A DNA stretch of 62,151 nucleotides, the filler included, from Circinaria calcarea (taxonomy: Eukaryota): assembly GCA_051942165.1 (NCBI GenBank). It is 3 parts of 3 records of this genome, joined end to end, with 100 filler letters (N's around TTAATTAATTAA, not from the genome) between each part and the next. Parts side by side here need not be neighbours in the genome. Positions count along the whole stretch, not along the records: positions 1 to 20,701 come from JAVECS010000167.1; 2 more parts are not named here. The stretch is one strand, 5' to 3'. The notes under the pieces were generated by a model. It saw only the letters and a program-made list of their open reading frames with translations, was not told the DNA's origin and ran no database searches. Positions 3,124 through 20,701 of the stretch are shown in pieces; position 1 is the first letter of the stretch, and every line of letters begins with the position of its first letter. Both the position numbers and the translations under genes were made by a program.

Positions 3124-4236
3124 GTTGTTCTTCTAATAATATGAGATAAATTTATAGAGTATCAATCGACGTACAGAATGGAGAGTAGTAAATGGGATGA
3201 GGTTGATATGGACAGAACAGAAGAGCTTCAGTGCATGTATATATAGAGATACAATCGAGGGATTAGTGATTACCATACCAGGTCACCACTTCAAAGGACT
3301 GAACTGAGATGATACCATACCATTATCCTCCAGCCTTCTATCGTAGACATGGAGAACGCTCATTGAAAGCTGTCTGCTAGAAAACTTCCTAATCCGCTTT
3401 CCCGAGTCATCCATACTCAAATATGGACAATGACATTGTCTGACCGTACAAAGCGCCATATCCCAAGGACAAAGAACCATTGAAGACCAGGAGCAACCTT
3501 AGTATTGCATATGAACAGTACATAGGAACCAAGCGAAGGACCTCAAAGCAGAACATGGTACTCCGCGGAGACTTGATATTTCGAGCCTGTAGCAAGAGTT
3601 TTTCAAACGGACTAGACACTTCGAAAAGACGTCGAAGTCTAAGGCAGAGTACTCAAATCGGAGGAGAGACAGTCTCATAAAAGGGGTTCAGATTTGAAAC
3701 AGGACAGTTTTTCCATCCAGAACTCGGGGGTCATTGTAAAGACGAGACTTCTTGCTACATCAAACGATGAAAATCTCAGAACAATCCTATTGTATCCTTC
3801 ACAAAAATACGGATCGTCCACGATCAGCTCAAGATATGAAAGGGGCGTTGGACATCCCCTTGAGACTATGCTGGCGTGTTATATCTTTGCCAAGTCTGGG
3901 ATAGAATAGCTGTTCGGTGAAATCATGCTGGAGATATTGACGTTTCTGTTGCGTCGTTCATGAAATATCAAGCTCAATGGTGATGAGGAGTAAAAGCTGC
4001 GATGGTGTAGATCCCCTGTCGGGGCTAACTTCTTAGTGCAGTTCGGCAGACCCCGCTGCACAACATATTATCGTCGCTGGTGATTCGTGGCACATTACAT
4101 AGCCATCAAAGCTATTGGTTGCTTTCTAACCTTCCCCACGTAGTAAGGCAATCGTCCACGAATTCGTCTCTTGAAAACCTAGTGGTAAGTCTTATCCAGG
4201 TGCCTTTCAGATAAACCACTCTAATCCGACTAGACT

Positions 4237-4842
4237 ATGATTAAGCAGACCTTGCGAGATGGAGGCGAATGTGATGCCGCCACTACGCGACAGCTGGCAG
4301 AACGTAATTTGGATATGTTAAAGGCCAAGTTCTCTCAACCATCAGTCATTCAGCAGAAGTTTTCCCTCGCAGCCGAAGCCAAAGCCAACGGTACCTTCAC
4401 CAACCCTCCTCTGCCTTACGCTCCAAGGCATCTTCTATTTTACGGCTCCTTGATGGACCCAGAAATCCTACAGACCGTCCTCAACCTCCCCGAAGCGCCC
4501 TCTCTTCGTGATGGCAGCATTAAGGATTACACGATGAGAATGTGGGGCATTTACCCAGCTCTTGTACCATCCAAGGGGTCAAGGATTGAAGGCAAAGTGT
4601 ACTTGTGTGAAACAGCCCAGCATTTTCTGCACCTAATCGCGTACGAGACAGGCGCATACCAATGGGTACCTTGCCGAATAGAGCTGCAGAACGGAGATAT
4701 CATTGAGCGTGGTCGAGTATTTGTTTGGGCTGGAAAGCCAGATAGCAAGGAGTTAATTGACGGCAGTTTCGACTTCGCCAGATATCAGCAATATTTTAAG
4801 CCATCGGTGCTCAAAAAGCAAGCCCATGGTGGTATTATATAA
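4237..4842 (+). CDS. Gamma-glutamylcyclotransferase / AIG2-like protein
   Basis: Intact 201-aa ORF with LFYGSLMDPEIL, YPALVP, IEGKVY and L..YET..Y motifs. Confidence 0.85.
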   Translation: MIKQTLRDGGECDAATTRQLAERNLDMLKAKFSQPSVIQQKFSLAAEAKANGTFTNPPLPYAPRHLLFYGSLMDPEILQTVLNLPEAPSLRDGSIKDYTMRMWGIYPALVPSKGSRIEGKVYLCETAQHFLHLIAYETGAYQWVPCRIELQNGDIIERGRVFVWAGKPDSKELIDGSFDFARYQQYFKPSVLKKQAHGGII

Positions 4843-5637
4843 CTGATTTCATGATTCTGCACGCAGGTATAGACCATCAATGCCCTTTTTAGCTATAGTT
4901 TTCCCCCCACTTCTCCTTTAAAGCCGTGCCAACAGAAAGGAGGTGCGTTACAGGGAGGGCGTTACGTCTTCAGCAGGCTGCATGGTATAATCGGAATGTA
5001 TGTATTATAAAGGCTACTGAAATACTATGTTGCTACTATGAAAACACTGTGTGTTTGTAGAGAGTGTGTGTGAAATATGTGGGGGAGAATACTCAGGGGA
5101 TTGCTGAGACATGGAGCGAATGTTTCCCCGCCATGCGCTCCAATCATAACATTCGATTATTTTTAGCTGGTTTTGGCAACGCCGGTTTTCACTAGCTAGA
5201 TCATCCGTCCAGACTAAGTTCTTAGTGCCACGCGGCTGATCCCATTGCTTCGATCTCTCATCTCTCATCTCGAGTCCTTCTCTTCCTCAGCCCTCCTGAT
5301 AACGCTTGCGTGCAGATAACCTTTCCCACTAGTTAGATCCTAGTCACACCCCACGTCTTGAGGCTCACAATTGCATTGACACCGCCGTGTAGCGACGAAC
5401 TCGTCGTATTGTGAAACTGGCTTGATAATGAGCCAGCTCTTCGCACTGCTATAGCCATAGGATTTGATCAAGCATTCTGTACAAGGTATGATTGGCTGAG
5501 AGCATTATTCCGTGCCTACCTAACTCTCTCTGAATATAGCGAAAATCACCCTCAACCCCCCCAAGTGATGTCAAGTGGGCATCTCCGTGGTTAACTACTT
5601 ACTCGCCTTTTAAGAACATACTCATGCTTCTATCCTG

Positions 5638-8600
5638 ATGGCTCAGCCTATCTCGTTTCAACGCGAGACTCATTCGGGGACAAAACATTGTACCGCTCTC
5701 TGGCCTGAGGGGAAGAGCACCGTCTTTGCTAGGCTACCACATTATGATTTACTTACCTTCATGGCTATGGCGCAGAGGCTGCCTACTCTCCATCTCTTCG
5801 ATTTCGTTCCGACCTTTAGGCAAGTTAATTCTAGGAGAGGTCTAAGTGGAGCGGTCCATGCAGCTTCCCTATCATCTGAGCTGGGTATCGTTTTCAAGCG
5901 ATTCCATGTGACGCTTGATTTTACCGAGGAAACGGCGTACAAAGCGCTTATATGCGAACTTATGGTACTGGAACATCCTATTTTGAAGCAACATCGAAAC
6001 ATACAGGAGCTTCTTGGAGTAGCGTGGGATGTTCAAATATTTCAAGGAACATTAGTCCGTGTTATGCCTGTTCTCGTTTTCAAAAGATCCGATCGTGGTA
6101 CGCTGGTAGATTTCATGAACTCCGGGGTGTCCTATATACAGAGAGTACGATTTTGTAGAGATATCGGAAAGGCTATACAAGCAATGCATAAGCTCAGTAA
6201 GTATTACATCCCTGCACAAGAAACTGAATCTGACAGCAATTCGTACAGATATCGTGCATGGTGATATTAAACCTGATAATATCTTGATTTTCAAAGACGA
6301 AACTGGCTTTATGGCTAAAGTTATTGATTTTGGTTGCTCCTGTTTTGGATCGAGAAACGATGATCTGGTGTTGTTAAGCCGTACAGCTCAGTGGGCAGCT
6401 CCTGAAGTCGGTACCTCACATATATCTATTGAAGCAGCTAAGCTAGCTGACATATACTCCTACGGTATGCTGTGCGCTTGGATATTTTTCGGGCAGGGTA
6501 TGCCTGTTACTGACTTTGTTCGCCTGCCTTCTAACTTCGACCAAGCTGCGGAACACCTGATGCAGATAAAGGAGACAGGATTAGAACAATCACAAGATAC
6601 GTCCGTTGCTATAAATAGAAGTGTGCAGGGCATGAGGATTTTTTTCGAGTCCAGCTTCCAAGCAACGCAAGAGAGACGAGCGCGCGATATAGAATATCTT
6701 CTGGACCAACTGCGCTGTTTGTTGATGGAATGGAATATGGGGTGTGTCCAATGCGATTATCCCTCTACAGAATAGCTTTTACTGATAACCAGATAAGACA
6801 GGGAGGTTCAACTAGTAAGCAATATTGTCTTACAGACATGGTCTTGACCGTAAGTTAAAGAGCCTACCTACTCAGAGCGGTATTGACTATGTAGCTCGTC
6901 GGTGCCACGAGACTCTCTTGTGTTAAAAGTCATGTTCAGGCTTTTATTACACAACTGTTGATCCTCCTAATACTCGGGCGGGAAAATAAGACTTTCATTC
7001 CCGGCCAACCTCAATTGGTGTATGATTTATTACATCTCGATGCTCTTCTTTGGTTAGGATCTTTCCTTATAATCTTATTAATCAGTACCGGCGCCATAAC
7101 GTACATTGCGTATCAAACTTCTTCAGGCATTTTCTCAGGTTACGTCAGTTATATCGCTCTGGGGGTCCTTGCAGCCTTACCACTCATACATATTGGAATC
7201 TACCTCTGTTTTTTCGAGGAGTTGAAACATCTTTGGTATAAGCTCCAACATATATGGCGCTCACTCTCCATCTATGGAGAAACACAGCACGCTATACCGC
7301 ACGTAGGTAGCACTGCCAACATTTTCCGCTCGGTATTCGATATGCTAACACATCCCAGTTGCCGGATATATACTCCTTCTTAAACGAGACTCATTATCTT
7401 GTACGGGAGCAGCTTGTTAAAGACCTCGAGAGGAGGATACAGAGGGGCTGTATAAAATGTAAACCAGATGCTGCACTTCAGCTTGCTCTGTGTTATTATA
7501 CCGCTCTCGGAACTCCAAAAAATACAACCGCATCCGAACGTTGGCTTAAGTATGCCCAAAAAACCGAGAGACATTTAGGAAAACTGTGTAAAGATGTTGA
7601 CTACAGTATAAATCTGAATGTTCGTACCAAGCTTGTGATTCTTGAAGGTAAAGAATTTAGATCTTACAGCCATATGTTCACTGTTCGAGATAAGGATAAA
7701 TATTTCGAGAATATACTTCCAACCCTGATAAGAAGGATTTCACAGGAGATTGAGGGGAAGGAAGCGTCCAAGGTGGGCCTACAAACCATCGCATCGTTGC
7801 ACTGGGAACTAGCCACGATATACTGGGTGCATAACGATCTCGAATTAGCAGAATACCATTTCAGGGCCGAAAAACTCATATATTTGGAACGTCCATTTTT
7901 GGGACCTTGTAAATACATTTCTGCAAGGACTTCACATAAAAGAGAGCGTCAGTCTTACGCAACTTCCACCGCTCTTGCGACAGTACTTGACGCCCAAGGG
8001 AGGGAGAGCGAAGCATTAAAAGAACTCCAAGCCGATAGATATTTAATGAAAAATCCGAACGGAAGTCATCCTGACTGGGCAATACTTTCTGTAACACTTG
8101 AGAAACGAGATTTCGTTTCAAGGGCCATGCTAGCAAATCTCCTCATCCGACAGGAGTGCTCAGATATAGCATTAAGATTGGATCTTCTTTCTGACCTTGA
8201 TGATATTCGATTTCATCGAGACAAGGATAGCTATATTATGACGCAGTGTTTAGAGAATATACTAGCACTTGCGCAATTGCTTTTTAAACAAATGCGGAAG
8301 GATACGGCTGCAGATCTTCTCCGAAAAAGATTAAAAGCACATGTCGAAATGTTTGGTACGTTACACCCAAGGACAATGAAAGCCACGAGCGACTTTATCT
8401 TCATACTATCTAATATGGAAGATGAACAACTCGACGAGGCCATATGCCTACAACCCCCGACACTGGACAACTTCTCTGAGGAGGTGAACACAGAGGTCTT
8501 GTTATTTAAAACTGCCTTTGCGCTTGCACTTTCTAAGAAGGGACGCATCGATGATGCCATTGCTGAGATAGATCTAATTCTGCAGTATAAGAAGCGAAAT

Positions 8601-10409
8601 TGGACTCATGGAGAGTACGTGACTCAGGGTTGTATTAGCGACCTCGCTAGCAGCCTTTGTGTACAGGGTGAGGGAGAATATGGAATGCCAGCACTCATGC
8701 AGCATGAAATGTTAGAAATCTCTAAAAAGACGCAGAGTCTAGAAGTCAAGGCGCAAATCATTGCTATTTTATGCACTCTGCCTAGACTAGGCGCACTCGA
8801 TGAGGTTCTGACAGGAATGAGATTGCTGGAGGAAGCTCTAAGAAATTTATGTCAAGATCAGAGGGATCGAATCAAGATGCAAGGATTTATCGTGTTCATT
8901 CTCGCAAACCTTGGCCTTTGCTTCGAGAATCCGCTCCTAGTAGGCGAAGCATTGGATCTTAGCATCGCTCTAAAAGAAGAGGTAGTTGAGAAGCCTGGTT
9001 GGAACGAGATAGACCGCCTGTCTGTTATGCGATCGCTAGCCTCTGTTTATTGGATAAAAAGCTTCATCGCCTGCCAGTGTCATGGGTTTGGGATTCATGA
9101 TCTGAGCTGGATGGATCAAGCGGAGCAGATCCATCGCGAAGCAATATGTATGGCGACCGCAAGCTTTGGTGATGACCATGAAGAAACAGTTCATACGATT
9201 GAAAAGATGGACAGTCTTCTTGCTCGCCATGGGACAGCACAGGCTGATCCTTACCGACTCAACGTACTGCACAGCCTTTTGAGAAAGGAATTCCTAGGAC
9301 CTGGCTGGTATAACGGTTGCTGGGGCTCTAAATTTCTAGATTTCTATGATGCTCTTGACAAGTATAATGCTCAAGACGCATACTTTCATAAGGGGCAGGA
9401 GAGGTATTTAGAGGAAACGCTTGGAGAGGAGCACCCTGGAGTTCTTGCCGAAATTGAGCGGCAAGCTCGAATCAACCCACAGTACGAAATCTTTAAAGAT
9501 ACCCGAAAGCCTTTGATCTATGTCCTGGAGAGTATTCGCAAATACTATAAACATAGCAACATGAAGCCAGATTATCATCCGCAAGTCATCAGGACCCTTG
9601 AGGCCCTTGCTCAGGCATATCGGCGGGAAGGTAAAACATTTCAATCTCTGGCAACCTCGAAGTATGTTTTGCATCTTGCACGCAAGACATTCACAGGAGG
9701 CGACCGCCACCCTAGTTTTATAGCGTATCGCATACGCTTGATGAAAACTCTGTTTCAAGATAACGTGACATTCGCCAAGAAGGTTGAGAATGCTAGAGAG
9801 CTTCTGAAATTGTCTACAGAAACTTTGGGTATACAACACACTCAAACCCTATCGTGTATGAATGCACTTGCCGAAATCCTTTGTGAGCAAGATCAGAATA
9901 GTGAGGCAATGCATCTGATGCAAGATGCTTTGGAGCTCGGCCTGCCATTCTTAGGTGTTAACCACAGTATTGTCTCGCAATCGTGGACTAATTTACTGGC
10001 GGCAATGAATTATGCCACTCGTGACAGCGGAGACTTGTTGGTCAGAGTTGAGGAGATTATACACAGCCTCAGAGTCGCTTCACAACCGTCGGAACCTATA
10101 TTCTTCGATTCAGCGAGTCTCCTACGGGTCTTCGCTGAGGTAAAGCGTATGACTTTAGGGGCGATTGTTCTTGGGGACGAACACAAGTTTACAAGGTCTG
10201 TTAGGGATTCATTCATTCTTCTACTTTGGTATGGCTGCAATTTGAGGTTCGACGTAGCGGTTCAAGCGCTGCAAAGATTAAAGGACATACCGTGGGCAGG
10301 GTTCAGGCCTTCAGTGACATTTGAGGATAATTACGGATCACTTGAGGCGATATTTAATAGACTGAAAGTATACCTGGATATACCCAAGGACCGTTTATCC
10401 CGCTTTTAG
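5638..10409 (+). CDS. Multi-exon protein kinase - hydrophobic/TM segment - Sel1/TPR-repeat protein
   Basis: Kinase motifs VFKR, HGDIKPDN, DFG, APE and DIYSYG, with introns 6197-6248, 6850-6894 and 7303-7358. These are followed by 2-3 hydrophobic segments and about 1000 aa of Sel1/kinesin-light-chain-type TPR motifs (AALQLALCY, FGTLHPRTM, LGEEHP, LGIQHTQTL). The splice donor near 6742-6746 is ambiguous, so kinase and TPR parts could be separate genes. Confidence 0.7.
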
Positions 10410-13400
10410 GCATAACAACGCTCAATCCCGTTCGCAACAAGTATTTCGAACAATTCCATTGGGCGTAATCCTGAATCCAAACTCGCCAGCTCTCCATTCA
10501 GACAAGTTTTCACTGCGTCACGATACACTGCGCCCATAGTACTTCCTAGTTGAGGGACGACGTCCAATAACCAATTTGGATTTGTGTTCTCCGGAAGACG
10601 GTCTGCTCTGTCAGCTTGGACTATAACCTCAACTGGTCTCCACAAGCCAAGTTCGAGCAAGACAACCCCCATACTGTAATAATCGAATTCTGGATGGTAT
10701 CTGCGCATCGAGTGGGAGTCTCGATGCTTAGGATGCTGGTACGGTTTCTGGCTCTGCTCACGAGACGGTCCAGACGTGAATTCAATTTCCTTATCGGGTC
10801 GACTGTGATCAAAGCCAACCAGGAAAGGCTGCTGGAGAGCGCGACTTAAATCGATGTGTTCTACTTCTTTTATTGGCTCTCTCTGGCTATCCCCCTCTGC
10901 TTTTGCACTATGCTGACTCGTTACTAAGGAAGCTGAAGAAGCGGTCTCAGAGGTAGATGCTAGTGGCTGTGAATCTAATCTCCTATCGCGGGCTTTCCTT
11001 GAAAAGGCGTTAAAAATGTTTTTCGAAAGCTTTTTTTTCCCAATCTGACGCGGACTTGGGAGTATATGCTTTTCATCCCTGATTGGAGGCGCAGGCTGTA
11101 ATTTCTTCTCCGATGTATTAGTGACGGCCACATAGGCTTGCGACAACTCATTGTCGAAGAATAGAACGTTAAGAGAGGAGATGTTCTTATGCAGCCATCC
11201 AGTCTTGTGAACAGCCAAAACACAACGTGCAAGACTCTGTGCAAGATTGAATAGAGTTCCGAGATTAGGCCGTTGGCAGCCGAGAATTAAGCTCTTTAGG
11301 CTTACGGGTTTAAGCGATAAAGAAAACAGCGGTGGGAAGCCGTAGACCAGACTAATTGCGTTATGCGAGAGATCTAAAAAGTAACCCGTGCATTGAAGTA
11401 CTCGAAAGTAATCTGGCATTTCTGGATTGTTCAAGAGCTCTGCCAGGGCATCTGCACGATTATACAATTCATCCCCGTGGTGTTGTCCAAGCCAATCGGG
11501 GTCGTATGACATTTGCTCGATTAATACAGTTTTCTCAACGCCTTCCATTTCAGAGATTGTCCCGAAGCAGTGAATACCGAGCTTCGTCGATACTGGAACT
11601 TGATGATCCGTTAAAAGAAGTCTCTTTCTCGCATTGGGTTGAAACTGGTGTACTCGAGCTGTCAAGTATTTGATCGTTGATAACAGGGTAAGATTTCTGC
11701 TCAGACTACCTTCGTCAAGGTCATGCAGTTTTCCAAGGGTATAAACGTTATTGGCGCTTAGTATTTGATTCTCAAGCAAGCCATTCATCATATGTACTAA
11801 GGGTCGAGGAGGAAGAGCCCATAGCCCATCGTTCAGTAGGCTTAGTTGACGTCGGTGAATTTCCGTTGCTGGAAGTACATGCTGCTTGGCGCTGTGAACA
11901 ATATCGCGTTTTTTCCAAAATTTCCGGGTAAGTTCTTTGTTTTCTTTTATAAGATTAACTTCAGAAAGAAAGGCCAGCAAAAGCTTGTGAATCTCGGCGA
12001 AAACCTGTCTGGAGCCCAAAAGCCACTGACGTAGTGAGTCGTTTCTGAGAGAAGCAGGAACTTCGAAGCCAGAATAATCTTCGAGTAGTTTAGCACTCCA
12101 TCCCCATAGAATAAATCTCTTACGCTCAATATCAAGCAAAGTATCATCCAACCAAAATTCGCGGGTCGCTTCGAAAACTCTGCACACGGTCTTGACTATG
12201 GTCTCTTGCGCTCGTAAGAAGATCTGAATAGTCACGCTATCTGCTGTAGGTCGGCTATCTGGGTTAAATGCTAGCATGTCTCTAATAAGTAATAGATGCT
12301 TTTGTTGGATATTCGTAATTTGATTACTCAGAGAGTCTAGCATTCCGGTAACAGCTGGATTGGGTTTGTCGTGGGAATGAAAAAGATAGGCCGTATACTC
12401 GCCGGCCCAAAGCGTCGTCCGTCGCTTTTTCTGGAAGTCCTCAACCGCTTGCGCTTTGTTCTCAGGGTGAAGGTTATGAATGAGAATCTCAAGTAAAATG
12501 CAGCCAAATGACCAGATATCACTAGCGCGACCCACGATTCCCTTCGAGAATGTGTCGTCTTGTAGGGGTTCACATTCGGGAGCCAGATAGTCGCCATTAC
12601 CGGCTGCAAATATTGTTTTCGACGTCTCGGGACGGAGTCTAGAGAGCCCAAAATCGGCGAGGAGGAGCTTCCTTTGCCGAATTAGAATGTTCCTAGGGGC
12701 GAGATCATAATGACATCCGATTAGCTCCAGGTCATACTCTTTAGAACAATACTGATGCAGATTCTCAATTGCGGAAGAAAGACCGTACAGCTGCTGAAGC
12801 AGAGCATGCTCGAAGGGGAAGAACACGCTCAATGCATCTCTTTCTTTATCGCGTAACACTTTGGAGAGAGTCGCATCAGCTCGCGGGAATAGGAAGTTAT
12901 GTTCTGGAGGATCGTTCAACACTGTATAAGAAGCTAGAAGCTCAATGATGTTCTCGTGTCTCAACGACTTGAGTAATGATAGGATCCTTTGTTCGCTCTT
13001 AAATTCGCGGTGTGCTTGTTCCAGAAGTCTGCCACCATGGGCGTCCGTTTCGAACCTGAGTAGCTTCCGGACAATGGTGACCTGCAAGGTGTTAGAAATG
13101 CATATACTATGCCTACTATCTCTTACCTGATCGCCCCCCTGAAACCCAAATCCATGATGAGTACTAGGTAAAGTGACTTCGTACACGTCCCCAAAACCCC
13201 CCCCACCTATCCATTTACTTTTAACAAAAGGTATGACAATGTCGGTTTGATATATACGGTGAGCGCGCCCCTCTTCAAAGTAGGGAGCTATCACTTCCCA
13301 CTGGTGTCTTTGAATATCAAAAATCGCATCGTTATCATTCATAAGAATCCTTGTTAAGGTCTCCTGTTCGAATGGAAGCCTCGAGTCCAAATGCCCTGTT

Positions 13401-13663
13401 TTTGATGATTGATCTGTCTCCACAAACTTCACTATAAGATCAACCCTGTTTCGCATTATCAGCAGCGCTAATACCCTTTTCCCACCATTGAAAACTGCTT
13501 CCATGCAGTTACGTTTCCACAACATATCTATTTCTGTTTTCTCGATGCATTCACGAACAGTATCCCGAGTTAAGATGCTATTCAGTGCACCCTCAGTTAA
13601 GAAATACTTCGACTCTGCACTCTTCACCAAAGCTTCCTTGAGATTCTTACGAATCCGCTCCAT
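10406..13663 (-). CDS. Protein kinase - HeLo-like helical domain - kinase-like domain protein (about 1070 aa)
   Basis: ATG at 13663 and a likely in-frame 45-nt intron 13126-13082 (GTAAGA..CTAAC..TGCAG). Kinase motifs are GGGGFGDVY, VRK, HYDLAPRN, DFG, APE and SDIWSFG. Then comes LDIERKRFILWG (HeLo-like E..R..LWG) and a second atypical kinase-like domain (WLHKNISSLNVLFF, PFLVGFDHSR, YQHP, DYYSMGVVLLELGLW). Confidence 0.85.
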   Translation of the reverse strand: MERIRKNLKEALVKSAESKYFLTEGALNSILTRDTVRECIEKTEIDMLWKRNCMEAVFNGGKRVLALLIMRNRVDLIVKFVETDQSSKTGHLDSRLPFEQETLTRILMNDNDAIFDIQRHQWEVIAPYFEEGRAHRIYQTDIVIPFVKSKWIGGGGFGDVYEVTLPSTHHGFGFQGGDQVRDSRHSICISNTLQVTIVRKLLRFETDAHGGRLLEQAHREFKSEQRILSLLKSLRHENIIELLASYTVLNDPPEHNFLFPRADATLSKVLRDKERDALSVFFPFEHALLQQLYGLSSAIENLHQYCSKEYDLELIGCHYDLAPRNILIRQRKLLLADFGLSRLRPETSKTIFAAGNGDYLAPECEPLQDDTFSKGIVGRASDIWSFGCILLEILIHNLHPENKAQAVEDFQKKRRTTLWAGEYTAYLFHSHDKPNPAVTGMLDSLSNQITNIQQKHLLLIRDMLAFNPDSRPTADSVTIQIFLRAQETIVKTVCRVFEATREFWLDDTLLDIERKRFILWGWSAKLLEDYSGFEVPASLRNDSLRQWLLGSRQVFAEIHKLLLAFLSEVNLIKENKELTRKFWKKRDIVHSAKQHVLPATEIHRRQLSLLNDGLWALPPRPLVHMMNGLLENQILSANNVYTLGKLHDLDEGSLSRNLTLLSTIKYLTARVHQFQPNARKRLLLTDHQVPVSTKLGIHCFGTISEMEGVEKTVLIEQMSYDPDWLGQHHGDELYNRADALAELLNNPEMPDYFRVLQCTGYFLDLSHNAISLVYGFPPLFSLSLKPVSLKSLILGCQRPNLGTLFNLAQSLARCVLAVHKTGWLHKNISSLNVLFFDNELSQAYVAVTNTSEKKLQPAPPIRDEKHILPSPRQIGKKKLSKNIFNAFSRKARDRRLDSQPLASTSETASSASLVTSQHSAKAEGDSQREPIKEVEHIDLSRALQQPFLVGFDHSRPDKEIEFTSGPSREQSQKPYQHPKHRDSHSMRRYHPEFDYYSMGVVLLELGLWRPVEVIVQADRADRLPENTNPNWLLDVVPQLGSTMGAVYRDAVKTCLNGELASLDSGLRPMELFEILVANGIERCYA

Positions 13664-13859
13664 TGTTTTACTTCTTCTTTCTTTGGAAGTTGTGGAATTG
13701 CGAGTGAGTGTCGAGGTTATTTCGGCTGACACAAGGCTATCAAGGCCATTTTCGAGAGCGACTAGCCTCGAATTTAGCACTGTGTAACCAGACCTAAAGC
13801 AAATTACTGTAACCGGGCGTCAGATCTGGTAAGATCCTTTCTACCAACAAATAGCTATC

Positions 13860-14146
13860 ATGCCACAAGTCACCCAGGTTCTTGAGCGGAGATACGTCGA
13901 CAAGGCTAAGCTCCTACAGTTTTGTCGTGAAGAATTCGGATCTGGCAATTTTAGTATCGAGGTAGCCATCCATTGAGTATTTTATAGTATATCAAGTTAA
14001 AAGGCTTATATAGCATGACGATGAACACTACGTCTTGACAGTCCCTCGAAGATTGATAAAGGTATTTACTTTCATCCATTGGAACTATACACTCTGATAA
14101 GCTTATACATTCGGGGTATCAGGCAGAGATTGCGAAGCTCCAATAG
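13860..14146 (+). CDS. 57-aa three-exon microprotein (absent from the ORF track)
   Basis: Exons 13860-13961, 14014-14061 and 14123-14146 with phase-0 GT..AG introns of 52 and 61 nt give MPQVTQVLERRYVDKAKLLQFCREEFGSGNFSIEHDDEHYVLTVPRRLIKAEIAKLQ*. Confidence 0.75.
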
Positions 14147-14623
14147 CACACAGCTGTTTCCACATCTTTTCTAGCAGACCCTTCTTAACCAGCCGAGAAC
14201 CATCATCCGTTGGGCTATCTCACCTGCTTGTGGTAGAATGAAGTGGGTATTCCGCGCTAGTCGACGAACGAACAGGAGGAGTTTGGGGACAATTGTAAGA
14301 TGGCGGAATACTAGACCTAATGTGGGAAGCTTGCGACGTTATCCACCATTCAGTGGAAACGATTAAAACCCAAAGATATCCTATCAAGCCGCTTGCAATG
14401 GTATGCTGCTACTGCAGGGTGATCATATTGGCTTTACCCCACCTGCAAAGGTTTGCCTTATTGCCTAGGCTATGGATGTAGAACAGTCACCGATCGAGAC
14501 AGCGTGAGCGTAAGAGGTGCCAAGATACCATAGCCCCAATTGATGAGATTCTTTCCCCCGGCTATAAAGTTCAACCCTTTCCCGGTACAGAGAAAGCACA
14601 CAGCATTCCTCTGGCTAGTATCC

Positions 14624-16633
14624 ATGGCAAACTCTGAACCAGCAGGCCCCGTTGTTGATGATTTACATATCTTAGATGATCCCAAAGATGCTTATACGCA
14701 ATTAGAGGAGGAGGCAGGCCGGTTGTTCATTGAAGAAGGATTAAAGGTTCTTGTATGGCCGAATGACAGGTGAGCTGCTCATCTCTGATTACACAGTCTA
14801 CCTAGTACTGATTGGCTTAGCGGCAAGCAACTTTCTCTGATCATTGATTCTACGGCTTTGGATGACTACGTTCAAGTAAGATAACTACTTCTATACGTGC
14901 CTATCCTTATCATTCAATTCTAACGAAGCTCTAGCGATGTCTTTCAGAAGGCAGAAGCAGTTTCTTGTGGGTTCACTTGTCTTTGCCCTCCTCATTGATG
15001 ACTGAACTCTCCATTCCGCAGAATTCTCCAGCAGGAACACACATGGAGCCACATTCTCATAAGCCTCGATTGTTTTAGGACTATAATAGCAGCCTTTGGG
15101 GTGTTCACGCCTTTTATTGAATTCATCAAAGCCTTTGGCTTGAAGGTGTCGGAAAGCGATGAGAATTTCATTGCCTATCACCGCAGGAGCTCTTCAATAC
15201 TTTCTGGTGAGTATCGAGCAAGGTTCCCAATATTCTACTTCAACTTACCCATCCTACTTACCCACCCTACTTACCTACTCTACCCGATGGCCAAGTCGGG
15301 GTACTCCACCCCACGCCGAAAGCCTCAGCTTCTACTCCACCCCAGAGGCTTAGGGTATGGTGACCTTGGTATTGAGGCATCCAGAGGCGCATTGCTAATG
15401 ATCTGGTTCGCCTCGACAAGAAATATGCTATAACCTTCGTTATCCAGAGAAGAGCGGCCGGAGTAATCATCCTATATGGTCAATCCGACACGTCGCCGTG
15501 TACCAGCAGTACCATCACAAGACCGGGATATCCAGATGGCTCCTACTACAGCCATCCGAGCGCATGAAACAAAAAATCATAAGCATTATCCAGGCCGATG
15601 GTTGTTTAACTAATAATCCGGTTATCCCACATCTCGCAATTCTGCTATCGTCTGAGAAAGGGTGGAGAGGGTATATAAGCGATTTACAGGAAGAGCTTAA
15701 CGAGCTGGTATAATATATTTCAGTTCAGATATTGTTCTTCATGCTAGAGTCTATAAAACGCTGTAAACCAGATTTCTAACCAGTTATAACATAGGACTAC
15801 AAGGCACAATTCTTCAAACCCGCTATATCTGACAAGGACTCATTCTATGTCCGTTTCGGTGACAGTCAACTTTTGCATCGCCGTCGACAAAAACTCCTAA
15901 AGTCATTTGCCGTTCTAGAAACCTGTATTAGCGTTGCTCAGGGTTATCAGCACTTTTGCAGAGACTTCGATAAGGCGTCTCAGACCCGAATCCCCCAGTC
16001 TTTCTATGTCGAGATAGAATTGTATATTGCCAAAATGCAAGCCCACAAGCGGGCAGTAAATCTACTTCTGAAACAGTCCGCGGGTACCTTGAAGCTGGTC
16101 AGTCATGTCTAATGGACGACCCTCTTACATATGGCTAACCTCTGACAATACGAAAGCTATTCCAAGTTCTCCAATTCCGGAACGATGAGGCATTTGCAAA
16201 AAGCAATAGTATCATGGAACATAATAGCCATGTACTTACAAACCTTGGGACTAGTGCCCGAGAAGAGAACAAGGCTATCATTGTGCTCACAGAGCAAGGG
16301 CGTACCGATTCGAGATTCATGAAGATCCTAACATTCATTGCTGTGTTATTTCTGCCTGCGGGTCTTGTGGCGGTAAGAACCTATCCTTTACAGCTGAACA
16401 TTCCCGTCGATCCCAACGCTGACGAAGAAACCCATCAGAGCATATTTAACTCCGGTCTAATCGTTTCCGTGAACGATGGTGAAGCATCAATGCAGACTCA
16501 CTTTAAGCCTGCGACGCAGTTTTGGATATATCCTGTCTCTACAGTTTTGCTGATGTGCGTCACAACTGTACCTGTGGTATACCTTGGGAGACGTAAGAGC
16601 AAGAAAGATATGGGCATGCACAGTGTTCATTGA
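14624..16633 (+). CDS. CorA-like (2 C-terminal TM helices) membrane protein, about 472 aa, 8 exons
   Basis: Exons 14624-14769, 14821-14875, 14935-14966, 15022-15206, 15421-15707, 15795-16097, 16157-16372 and 16439-16633 splice in frame (1419 nt). Motifs include EICYNLRYPE, WSIRHVAVYQ and WLLLQPS, a coiled-coil stalk, TM1 MKILTFIAVLFLPAGLVASIF and TM2 QFWIYPVSTVLLMCVT. Confidence 0.8.
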
Positions 16634-17199
16634 AAAAAACTCATCGGTGAATGGAGAACACTAAGGAAGCAGGAGACTATAATGCCTCAGTCCACCACGG
16701 CCTATGGTATGGAGTGAGCGGGCGTTTGGCGATATAAACTTGATACTTAGGTGCTCTTTACTCTTAGCTACCTATGGACACTTTCAACAAATTGTGACTT
16801 CTCCTACAACGCCGCAATCGTAGCCGAATGAACGTACGCTCCAAACCCATCCCACTCCTCCCTCTACGCCTCTCTTCATACTTCCCCACCACCCATCTGA
16901 CAGAGCCGGCGCCTCAGACCGGGCAAAAGCACAGATTCTACTTAGCCAAAAAAAAAGGGGCATAAAACTTTTCTACAAGAGCTTGATTGTAGGGACTGTA
17001 TTAAGAAAGTGAAAGAGCTAATTACATGGGAAAAGAAATGGGAAAAGGGATGCTGACAATGTATATAGTAAATTAGACAGAAAAGCGACGATGAGATATA
17101 TAATGCAAAGCGCCACAAAATCGAGGAATGAAACATGCCGCCTGCAGATGTTGTTATCAGTGCTAGTTCCTAGACATCGAGCCTAGGTGATTCGGGATT

Positions 17200-18025
17200 T
17201 CAGGAGGCTTGCTTGGTTGTCGATGATTGAGATGATTCCTGATTTAGGTCAGTTTTTTCGCAAGGCGGCGACGGCGAAGAATTGGAGGAATTTGTATAAG
17301 GAACTGAAGCGTTAGGGCGGATAACTTGACCTGCTGTCATCCCGTCAAGCTCGCTCGGTTCCCGTCCTGCGCTACTCAATAAGGCGTTGAGTGCTTTGAT
17401 CATATCTTGGTATGATTGATCGTCCAGCCTCGCGCGAAACAAGGGGTCCTGGTTGAGGACATGGAGGCATTGGCTGGGAATGGTTTTGATGTTGTGCATA
17501 CACACCTTGGAGAGTTTTCTCCACCGGCAGATATGCCATTGGATGCCGTCGTACTCCCCTTGCACTTGATATAGGTGAATGAGACCCGGGAAGTCAAGAG
17601 GAAATTCTCCGGACTGATATACTGGGCCTTCCTCTCTGTTTTCGAAGACGTAGCTCACATCTCCGGCCCTGCACAACTCGCAAGGCGGATCTCCTGTAAT
17701 CTGTTGATACATGATAAGTAAGCGACTGCACATTAGAGATTAGACTAACCACTAGACAGGCATTGTATTTGGCGTTCTCGATTTCAGCTGGATTTTTATA
17801 AGCATCTGGTAGCAACATCGTAAAGTGACTTGGTATATGAGGGTCGTCTATGACTTTGTCCTTCTTGTAATCTTTGATGTATGACAGGAGGTCTCCTGCT
17901 CTTGCGTCAGTAGGGATACATCCGCTGGCGCATGCCGCTGTATGTTGTCCCTTCTCGTGGGAATCATCTCCGAATACCCTATGTTCTTTTGGCTGCGTAG
18001 CTGTTTTGTCAGAAGCGTTACTCAT
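17200..18025 (-). CDS. Hypothetical protein, about 258 aa, putative PemK/MazF-like fold (paralog B)
   Basis: Exons 18025-17750 and 17700-17200 with a 49-nt intron at the same position (after ACLV, donor GTG|GTTAGT) as in 2291-3123. Confidence 0.75.
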
Positions 18026-19625
18026 TTTGCTTATATACTGAAAGGATATCTGATACTGGAATGTGATATTATAAGAGATGGCTAGTATTGCTCGTAGAGA
18101 ATATCTGTATAGAATAGAGCAGAGCGTGCTTGGAAAGGGCAGATATATAGCCTTTGAAATACAGAACTGCTATACCAATTACCATGGGACAGACCGCAGA
18201 GACTGAGCTGATACCAGACAATTGCGGTGTTCAACGGCTCTCCATCAAAGACGGGCTGAAGGAATAACGGACCATTCTGAAATGGACAACAAGCTCCCCG
18301 GGTCTCATACTATCATACCATTGAAATTACATTTTGTGCTACGGCAAGTACTAGGCAAGCAAGTGACAAGCCGGGAAAAGCAACAAATGTACAAAGTTGC
18401 TGTCCTAGACAGGGAGAAATAATATAATTCAGGCGAAACGTGACAGAAGGTTAGAACTGCAATGTGCAGCATGCTGCTTGTACGAGATTAGATTCAAAGG
18501 TCTTTCATAACCATGTCGCAAAGAAGCCACAGATAAACAGAAGGGTAGTCAATGGAGTCGAGAAACAATACTACTTCACCTTACCACCCTTGACGACCAA
18601 AGTCAAACAGCAAAATGTTATTGTCTTCTGCTCTGCTTCCTAAGCTCGATGAGCCTGCTACTTTTGTTTGAAGTCTGGTCAAAACGTAAAACAGGACATG
18701 CTACTTGAGTCATCCAGCTTCAAAGCTTGACAATGGCATTACCTCACCAGAACGGAGTTTCGCTACTTATTTAAACGGCTTAGAAGGGTTCTAGAAACAG
18801 TGCAACATCCCAAAGTGCCTTGGTCAAGGGGAAATGGAGAGTACAAATTAAGACATGTTTGGACAGAAACCACGACAAAATCAGAGAGAAGCATTGCATT
18901 TCGAACTGACTGAAACGCGAGACTGCGGCCGATAGTTTGTCAAGTGATTCCAACCCTCAAGGCAGACAGGTCCAATCCCGAGTCCTGGACTTGAAAGCGA
19001 TGAGTGAGTAATTGGGATTCAGATCTGAAACACGACATACTTTGATACAGGTCATCTTTCAAAGAAGAGAGATTGCCCCTATACAAAGCACCATTTTCCT
19101 CTTCATGACAAACAGTCGACAGGGTTCGTTCAGAAAGCACCACGCCATATCGTACCCAAAGGTACTAGAGGCGATCAACCAACAGCGTTATTACGCGAAC
19201 ACGGGGTAATTGCCCTCGAGCACCATTGTTCTCCACACTATCTAACTTTCCAAAAGCTGCTATTATTGTACCAATAATACGATCCCTAAGGTAGTTCATT
19301 GGCACCGTCGACGCGAAACTGAATAGGAGGTATCTATACATCGAAGGCTTTGTCTTGGCAAATGGAATTTCATGCTTGTTCCAAACGTGGTCTAGGCTCC
19401 CGTCAAGGCTTAGCCTCACGCAATGTAGATCCTCACGCACAGACCCGTTCCGGACCCCTTCTTCACTCTGGATCCTGGACATGGGCTCTCCGTACTCACT
19501 ACCCCTCGTCAACTTCCACTTACCCTTCTCAACTCCTCAGCGAAGCACCTACTTCATCAATCTTGTGAGTGAAGGCAGAGAACGTCTCTAAGCATTTGCT
19601 TTCCTTAAAACACGCAACCAGCGTC

Positions 19626-20272
19626 ATGTTTGCTTCCAAGCGCTTAGGCAAGGTATGTTGAGCTGAACCCATTACCCTTTCAGAGACCAATCTATTCTAA
19701 CATGTCTCAACAGGAGCTCACCAAGGTAACCGATACCTAACGAGAAAATCATTTACTCTCAACTAACACAACCACTCCATATAGATCCACGAAACCCTCC
19801 CTCCCGGCATCACCCTCGTCTCCGCCCCGGACTTCAAAGAATGGCTCGTAGACATACGTGTCCTGGATTCCAACCCTCTCTACCTAAACAAGACTTATCG
19901 CCTCCGCTTCCGGTTCTCCAACAAATACCCCATTGGTACCTCCCTCCTCTTCCTTCTCCTCTTTCCCCTCGTCCAGCTCCATTAACAACCATTCCAGAAG
20001 CCCCCGAAGTCACCTTTGTATCCTCCACAACCCCACCCCGCGAAATCCCCATCCACCCACACATCTACTCCAACGGCATCATCTGCCTCGACCTCCTCGG
20101 CACGGCCGGCTGGAGCCCCGTCCAGAACGTGGAGAGCGTGGCCATGAGTCTGCAGAGTATGCTGACGGGAAACACCAAGGATGAGCGCCCGCCCGGGGAT
20201 CAGGAATTTGTAAAGAGGAACACGCAGAGGCCGAGGGATATCAGGTTTAGCTATGAGGATAGTACCGTTTGA
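19626..20272 (+). CDS. Ubiquitin-conjugating enzyme E2, UBE2W-like
   Basis: MFASKRLGK|ELTK|IHETLPPGI...YRLRFRFSNKYPI|EAPEVTF...HPHIYSNGIICLDLL...WSPVQNVESV. Four exons, including a 12-nt microexon at 19714-19725. Confidence 0.9.
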
Positions 20273-20701
20273 GAGTTTATGGGGTGGGAAAGGGAAAAGA
20301 ATGTATAGAACGAGAGGGTGGAATCGAGATGATTGTTTAGCGTGGAGTTACGAGGCGCTTGGAGCTTTTGGAAAAAGGGGTAGTGCAACTTTTTAATCAC
20401 GTTGAATACAGACCCGGACATGCAATACTTGGCATATCAATTAGGAGTCTTTTCGCAACCCTTGTACTTTCACGCATCCGGCAGGAAAGCGCTGAATGCG
20501 GTAGCACGAGAGCAAACACAAATCAATCAGACCTAGGACCCCAATTATGAACAACACAATATCCGGTATCTATATTTCATTCAGAATCAAGTATACCATA
20601 CCCCTTCTAATACCTACAAGAAGAACCTCGGGTCTCGTGAAACCTACCCCCTTATTCCTCTCTTCCGGTCCCTCCTCCTCCTTATTCCCTTTCCCTTTTC
20701 C

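Follow-up and report, generated by a model that had tools for sequence, protein, structure and literature searches.

The segment at 13860-14146 of the window, by which we mean the whole 62,151-nt stretch of Circinaria calcarea DNA that was analysed (three joined parts of assembly GCA_051942165.1), raises two questions: whether a short segment invisible as an open reading frame encodes a protein once it is spliced, and, if so, what a protein of this size might do next to a gene for a CorA-like membrane protein. The initial annotation had proposed a 57-aa microprotein assembled from three exons, possibly co-transcribed with the CorA-like gene as a bicistronic or uORF-like unit. The locus resides on contig C167, which makes up window positions 1-20,701 and belongs to a 31.5-Mb assembly; the style of its introns and its genes suggest a filamentous ascomycete.

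In the proposed model, all on the plus strand, exon 1 (13860-13961; 102 nt, 34 aa) carries the predicted strand 1, helix 1 and strand 2 along with RY[IV]D and FG motifs, exon 2 (14014-14061; 48 nt, 16 aa) carries strand 3 and a PRxL motif, and exon 3 (14123-14146; 24 nt, 7 aa) carries helix 2 and terminates with TAG. Intron 1 (13962-14013; 52 nt) and intron 2 (14062-14122; 61 nt) are both GT-AG introns of phase 0, the position of the first being common to paralogues and outside homologues. Their removal yields a coding sequence of 174 nt for 57 aa plus the TAG; without splicing, the frame encounters a stop after 38 codons. Branch-point matches in the introns are weak, with no canonical CTRAC, and intron 2 has alternative acceptors (e.g. 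14102, which is in frame), so the sequence alone is no proof of the model and outside evidence is needed. When P0003, an outside homologue, was the sole reference for scoring, the annotated model ranked first among 324 spliced models at the site. With a profile built from three outside homologues only, the same exons, to the exact coordinate, were the best of 37,327 spliced models from 76 tiles covering both strands of window 9001-20701, at 90.9 bits; the best non-overlapping model in that scan reached 9.9 bits.

The outside homologues themselves are informative about splicing. Of 41 candidates in an alignment search, 29 were matches, and none of these bore an informative name. Three of these, P0003, P0011 and P0012, cross both exon junctions without intron sequence on contigs of 1517, 3338 and 913 nt, which we infer to be assembled transcripts; homologues with conserved intron positions, whose absence the initial annotation had named as counting against the model, were found. 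Among the other 26, a valine directly follows the end of exon 1 in 25 (counted by eye), as explained by read-through into a GT donor in phase 0. Seven matches came from an all-length search with exon 1, of which four are short true homologues and three (P0005, P0006 and P0008) are long matches to repeat proteins that were dropped as artefacts, and it recovered no longer or fused forms of the microprotein. The relatives were reached only by alignment search: neither the exon-1 frame nor P0003 by itself retrieved anything but the query in word-index searches, and a scan of metagenome contigs with P0003 produced 597 pattern matches, none of them confirmed. From these comparisons, it is practically certain that the 57-aa three-exon microprotein gene is real.

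P0003 shares 65% identity with the window protein over exon 1 and was the protein used for structure prediction. AlphaFold2 modelled it with a pLDDT of 60 from 10 alignment rows and of 85 from 19 rows, and the latter model places strands at residues 4-9, 32-36 and 39-44 and helices at 15-25 and 50-56, in agreement with the beta-alpha-beta-beta-alpha pattern first read from the window sequence. For the paralogues on contigs C656 and C687, we estimated dN at 0.19, dS at 1.33 and dN/dS at 0.14 over 63 codons, and the family is under purifying selection. Together, the alignments and the model show a conserved protein of roughly 57-65 aa that is predicted to fold. The predicted structure is small, with an open alpha/beta fold reminiscent of a ferredoxin-like domain minus its last strand, although the likeness to the ferredoxin-like small domains compared (HMA, ACT and RRM) is not significant (best Z 5.1, rmsd 3.0, 57 residues aligned). 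The microprotein had no useful or significant Pfam match and no match of note among PDB sequences, and the fold search gave no significant match, with a best Foldseek E of 0.27. The ESM Atlas holds no named cluster for it; the nearest by features, at 0.82-0.85 where values below 0.9 count as leads only, are unnamed eukaryotic clusters, mostly from Ascomycota (66-75 aa, 65-114 members), without Pfam or functional assignment. A kinship with Rad52/Rad22, suggested by a motif resemblance, was rejected when hhalign against the Rad52 exon of the same genome returned a probability of 1.4% over 21 columns. Nor did the microprotein show similarity to the soluble exon of the CorA-like gene or to the N-terminal domain of the kinase described below.

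The genomic distribution of the family ties it to its neighbours. A search of the genome with the CorA-like exon identified at least 13 loci, whose contigs account for 0.61% of the assembly. Genome-wide searches with exon 1 of the microprotein gave matches on eight contigs, and once the window and the contig of the query exon are left out, all six of the remaining matches fall on CorA-like contigs. When the stretches around all 13 CorA-like loci were examined, a member of the microprotein family was found at 12, and the link to the CorA-like gene made in the initial annotation holds. Nine of these copies are clear and intact. Two (C129 and C708) are weak at 12-13 bits and are backed by their position and exon layout. 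The remaining one, on C3150 (L013, 2079-2297), has an in-frame TGA in exon 1 in place of a conserved arginine and, lying beside a CorA-like gene, is probably a pseudogene. The thirteenth locus, C1283, has a lone CorA-like gene, with no microprotein (best model 6.3 bits) and no kinase on its 7.6-kb contig. The arrangement of two phase-0 introns around a 48-nt exon 2 was the top-scoring model for 7 of 11 anchors, and it became the top model at C656 as well once longer introns were allowed; exon boundaries at C687, C129 and C708 were set by family expectation. Several copies have individual features: both introns of the C898 copy have GC donors, and remnants of a Tc1/mariner transposase lie between its microprotein and CorA-like genes (L008, 5571-6611), while the introns at C687 and C656 (L010 and L011) are unusually long, at 142-378 nt, and this duplicated cluster adjoins a gene for a sterol-sensing, NPC1-like membrane protein, labelled by eye from its translation.

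The cluster of the window copy also includes two kinase genes that the initial annotation did not list, one diverging from the microprotein gene at a distance of 196 nt and the other a kinase-TPR gene. The first, K1 (10406-13663, minus strand), encodes an N-terminal domain, a Ser/Thr kinase with H-x-D and DFG motifs, a HeLo-like middle and a DUF7580 region, with Pfam E values of 4.8e-22 for Pkinase and 6.8e-6 for DUF7580. The HeLo match is below the Pfam cut-off (17.8 against 23.2 bits, E 0.003), HeLo-like matches in three K1 copies have E values of 0.003, 0.007 and 0.06, and the region is internal, following the N-terminal domain and the kinase, rather than N-terminal. The second, K2 (5614-10409, plus strand), combines a kinase with Sel1-like and TPR repeats and lies tail to tail with K1. 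Between its kinase and Sel1/TPR parts, a plus-strand frame at 6895-7380 with two hydrophobic membrane-like stretches may be an exon inserted into K2 or a small membrane gene of its own, and a gamma-glutamyl cyclotransferase (AIG2-like) gene adjoins K2 at 4234-4842 on the same strand. A Pfam scan of the K1 and K2 frames found no NACHT/NB-ARC, gasdermin or protease domain.

A kinase is present at 11 of the 13 CorA-like loci, the contig of the broken C3150 copy being only 2,955 nt long, and the H-x-D and DFG motifs were found in 10 of the 11 kinases checked, the C112 stretch as examined not covering that part. The full set of microprotein, CorA-like protein, K1 (kinase-HeLo-like-DUF7580) and K2 (kinase-Sel1-TPR) occurs on C167, C416, C763, C527 and C36; no more than 5 of the 13 loci yielded DUF7580 and TPR partners. 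The kinases of C112, C129, C708, C687 and C656 have other C-terminal regions, among them, at C112, a frame after the kinase that looks vWA-like by eye and has no Pfam match. These differences suggest swapped sensor or effector domains.

Downstream of the microprotein, the CorA-like gene (14624-16633, plus strand) comprises about seven exons with partly resolved boundaries and encodes a membrane protein in which the GMN filter is missing after the first membrane helix. The same is true of all 10 CorA-like loci read by eye, where GMN is replaced by motifs such as SIFNS and TIFSS. Matches to PF01544 at the first membrane helix are weak and were found in 6 of 11 copies (best E 0.016, below the Pfam cut-off), the match of this helix to CorA in the PDB is likewise weak (E 0.07), and the soluble exon gave no CorA match; on these sequence comparisons, the assignment of the gene to CorA is a weak one.

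Cluster membership is kept among the loci, and gene order and strand are shuffled. The microprotein gene lies upstream of the CorA-like gene on the same strand at 5 of 12 loci, downstream at 1 and on the opposite strand at 6. At six loci (C167, C898, C763, C36, C112 and C527) it is head to head with a kinase gene, across 196 nt at C167 and 209-527 nt at four others, and at three (C687, C656 and C3150) it is head to head with the CorA-like gene. In the window, the 196-nt spacer between the ATG codons of K1 and the microprotein (13664-13859) is probably a promoter shared by the two divergent genes. The cluster copies are very divergent, at 20-41% identity with the exception of one recent pair. 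Across 11 loci, the pairwise distances of microprotein, CorA-like exon and kinase are correlated (Mantel r 0.61-0.63, p 0.001-0.002), and no significant correlation is seen when only the six K1-type loci are compared (p 0.10-0.19). Duplication of the genes together is enough to account for the overall correlation, and the distances between paralogues single out no partner of the microprotein. The survey shows that the microprotein gene has passed through many duplications and rearrangements in the company of a kinase and a GMN-less CorA-like gene, and the microprotein is very likely a member of a conserved cluster with these genes.

What might such a cluster do? The reading we prefer, with a probability of roughly 0.45, is that it constitutes a self-contained defence or regulated-cell-death circuit in which the microprotein would regulate, as a small subunit, a membrane-pore module under the control of kinases. 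K2 would sense through its repeats, K1 would relay the signal or execute the response, the CorA-like protein would form a non-selective membrane pore, and the microprotein would be a co-expressed binding subunit that either holds the pore or a kinase inactive or transmits to the pore what the kinase signals. In favour of this circuit are the co-occurrence at 12 of 13 loci, the GMN-less CorA-like genes, the HeLo-like matches in K1 and the head-to-head kinase at 196-527 nt in five measured loci. According to PMC12881547, fungal cell-death pathways are often encoded in clusters of two or three genes that vary in number, and fusions to kinases exist for some HeLo-like domains. Against the circuit, the HeLo-like region is internal and below cut-off, the DUF7580 and TPR partners are confined to 5 of 13 loci, C1283 has neither microprotein nor kinase, the C3150 copy is broken, the CorA assignment rests on weak matches, and the distance correlation is accounted for by joint duplication. 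A more tentative step beyond this would take the cluster for an undescribed class of module in fungal immunity or cell death. A non-selective pore derived from CorA would be opened or kept closed by its own microprotein, with the cluster kinases in control; a genome would hold a dozen diverged and rearranged copies, much like a receptor repertoire, and the key regulator would have escaped annotation on account of its small size and its splicing.

The main rival to the defence or cell-death circuit is kinase-regulated transport of ions or solutes for homeostasis, whether of a cation other than Mg2+ or for the control of stress or turgor, in which the microprotein would be an accessory subunit of the channel and defence would play no part. 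The CorA-like membrane helix fits such a function, and some members of the CorA superfamily are active without an exact GMN. The 10 CorA-family genes of a lichen fungus are interpreted as Mg2+ transporters in PMC3897900, and a passage each in PMC12345182 and 10.1101/2021.11.24.469969 mentions fungal CorA-like genes only as transporters; CorA is absent from the text and five supplements of PMC4835503, and the apparent matches to the name in PMC4986451 proved to be the word 'coral'. The absence of GMN at all 10 loci read argues against transport, and thirteen very divergent copies accompanied by TPR and HeLo-like partners suggest a diversified receptor-effector repertoire rather than housekeeping transport. 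Transport is the less likely reading, if still the best of the alternatives. More doubtful is a microprotein whose main target is the kinase, which it would serve as substrate or decoy or would inhibit, and which makes no contact with the CorA-like protein. Plant immune kinases carry integrated small domains, and the six head-to-head arrangements with a kinase, the presence of a kinase at all 11 loci with an intact copy and the non-significant ferredoxin-like resemblance would suit such a role; the alignments of the microprotein, however, contain no invariant Ser or Thr, at three loci it is the CorA-like gene that stands head to head with it, and the paralogue distances do not favour the kinase over CorA.

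Far less probable is that the microprotein frame is a uORF or first cistron controlling translation of the CorA-like gene. The window locus invites this idea, as the frame ends 477 nt upstream of the CorA-like ATG (spacer 14147-14623) on the same strand, an orientation shared with the other copies among the five already counted; position excludes such control for the remaining 7 of the 12, and the microprotein is conserved in sequence and fold as a protein. The bicistronic or uORF-like role put forward in the initial annotation is therefore not borne out as a general one, and the retention of membership under shuffled order points instead to proteins acting together rather than to control of translation in cis. 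The splice-like signals that the same annotation noted near 14401 are indeed present in the sequence: a GT-AG stretch of 68 nt runs from 14401 to 14468 and may represent an intron in the 5' UTR of the CorA-like gene. The 39-aa plus-strand frame that it would create (14320-14508) was tried as a second family member and is unrelated, at -1.9 bits. Finally, a chance splice pattern or dead remnant, for which the weak branch points might speak, is already close to refuted by the top rank of the model against outside homologues and profile, the junctions these homologues share and the dN/dS of 0.14.

A literature search, with subscription papers and bioRxiv supplements outside its scope, did not turn up any account of the microprotein or the cluster. 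Botrytis Bcvic1/2, considered as possibly involving a kinase-CorA protein, was set aside, neither word occurring in the main text of the preprint. New here are the 12 rearranged copies within one genome, the addition of a kinase-TPR gene as the fourth member, the use of strand to test the uORF idea and the estimate of selection; the novelty is the core gene set, and the function of the cluster is a proposal. A family for which our searches gave no Pfam model, named homologue or fold match is under purifying selection and, in one genome, has followed GMN-less CorA-like genes and kinases across some dozen ancient duplications, and many fungal genes labelled 'CorA magnesium transporter' may belong to such a module. 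A kinase-gated pore with a microprotein switch, if it exists, would be a new type of effector for fungal immunity and a compact, testable system of three or four genes.

How does the cluster compare with known systems? Like the CorA/Mrs2/Alr1/ZntB channels (PF01544), the neighbour gene encodes a long helical stalk followed by a pair of hydrophobic helices at the C-terminus; unlike them, it is GMN-less, multi-copy and clustered with a microprotein and kinases, and the searches we ran found no accessory microprotein for these channels. In bacterial type III CRISPR systems, a CorA-like membrane protein has been reused as a signal-gated effector under a nucleotide second messenger; here, kinases and a microprotein would take the place of that messenger. 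With MLKL/RIPK3 necroptosis and the fungal HeLo-like kinase fusions treated in PMC12881547, the cluster shares a putative HeLo-like region followed by kinase-like DUF7580 and, in addition, kinases with catalytic motifs. It differs in that this region, whose match is below cut-off, is internal and preceded by a kinase, that genes for a CorA-like protein and a microprotein are added, and that the combination is limited to some loci. The fungal NLR, gasdermin and amyloid clusters of two or three genes covered in the same paper resemble it in small size, variable copy number and a TPR sensor-like protein, and differ in that the scanned frames contain no NACHT/NB-ARC, gasdermin or protease domain. 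By its predicted gene content, then, the cluster is not a member of the CorA Mg2+ channel, MLKL-type or NLR-cluster classes, and what it resembles is a clustered sensor-kinase-pore system.
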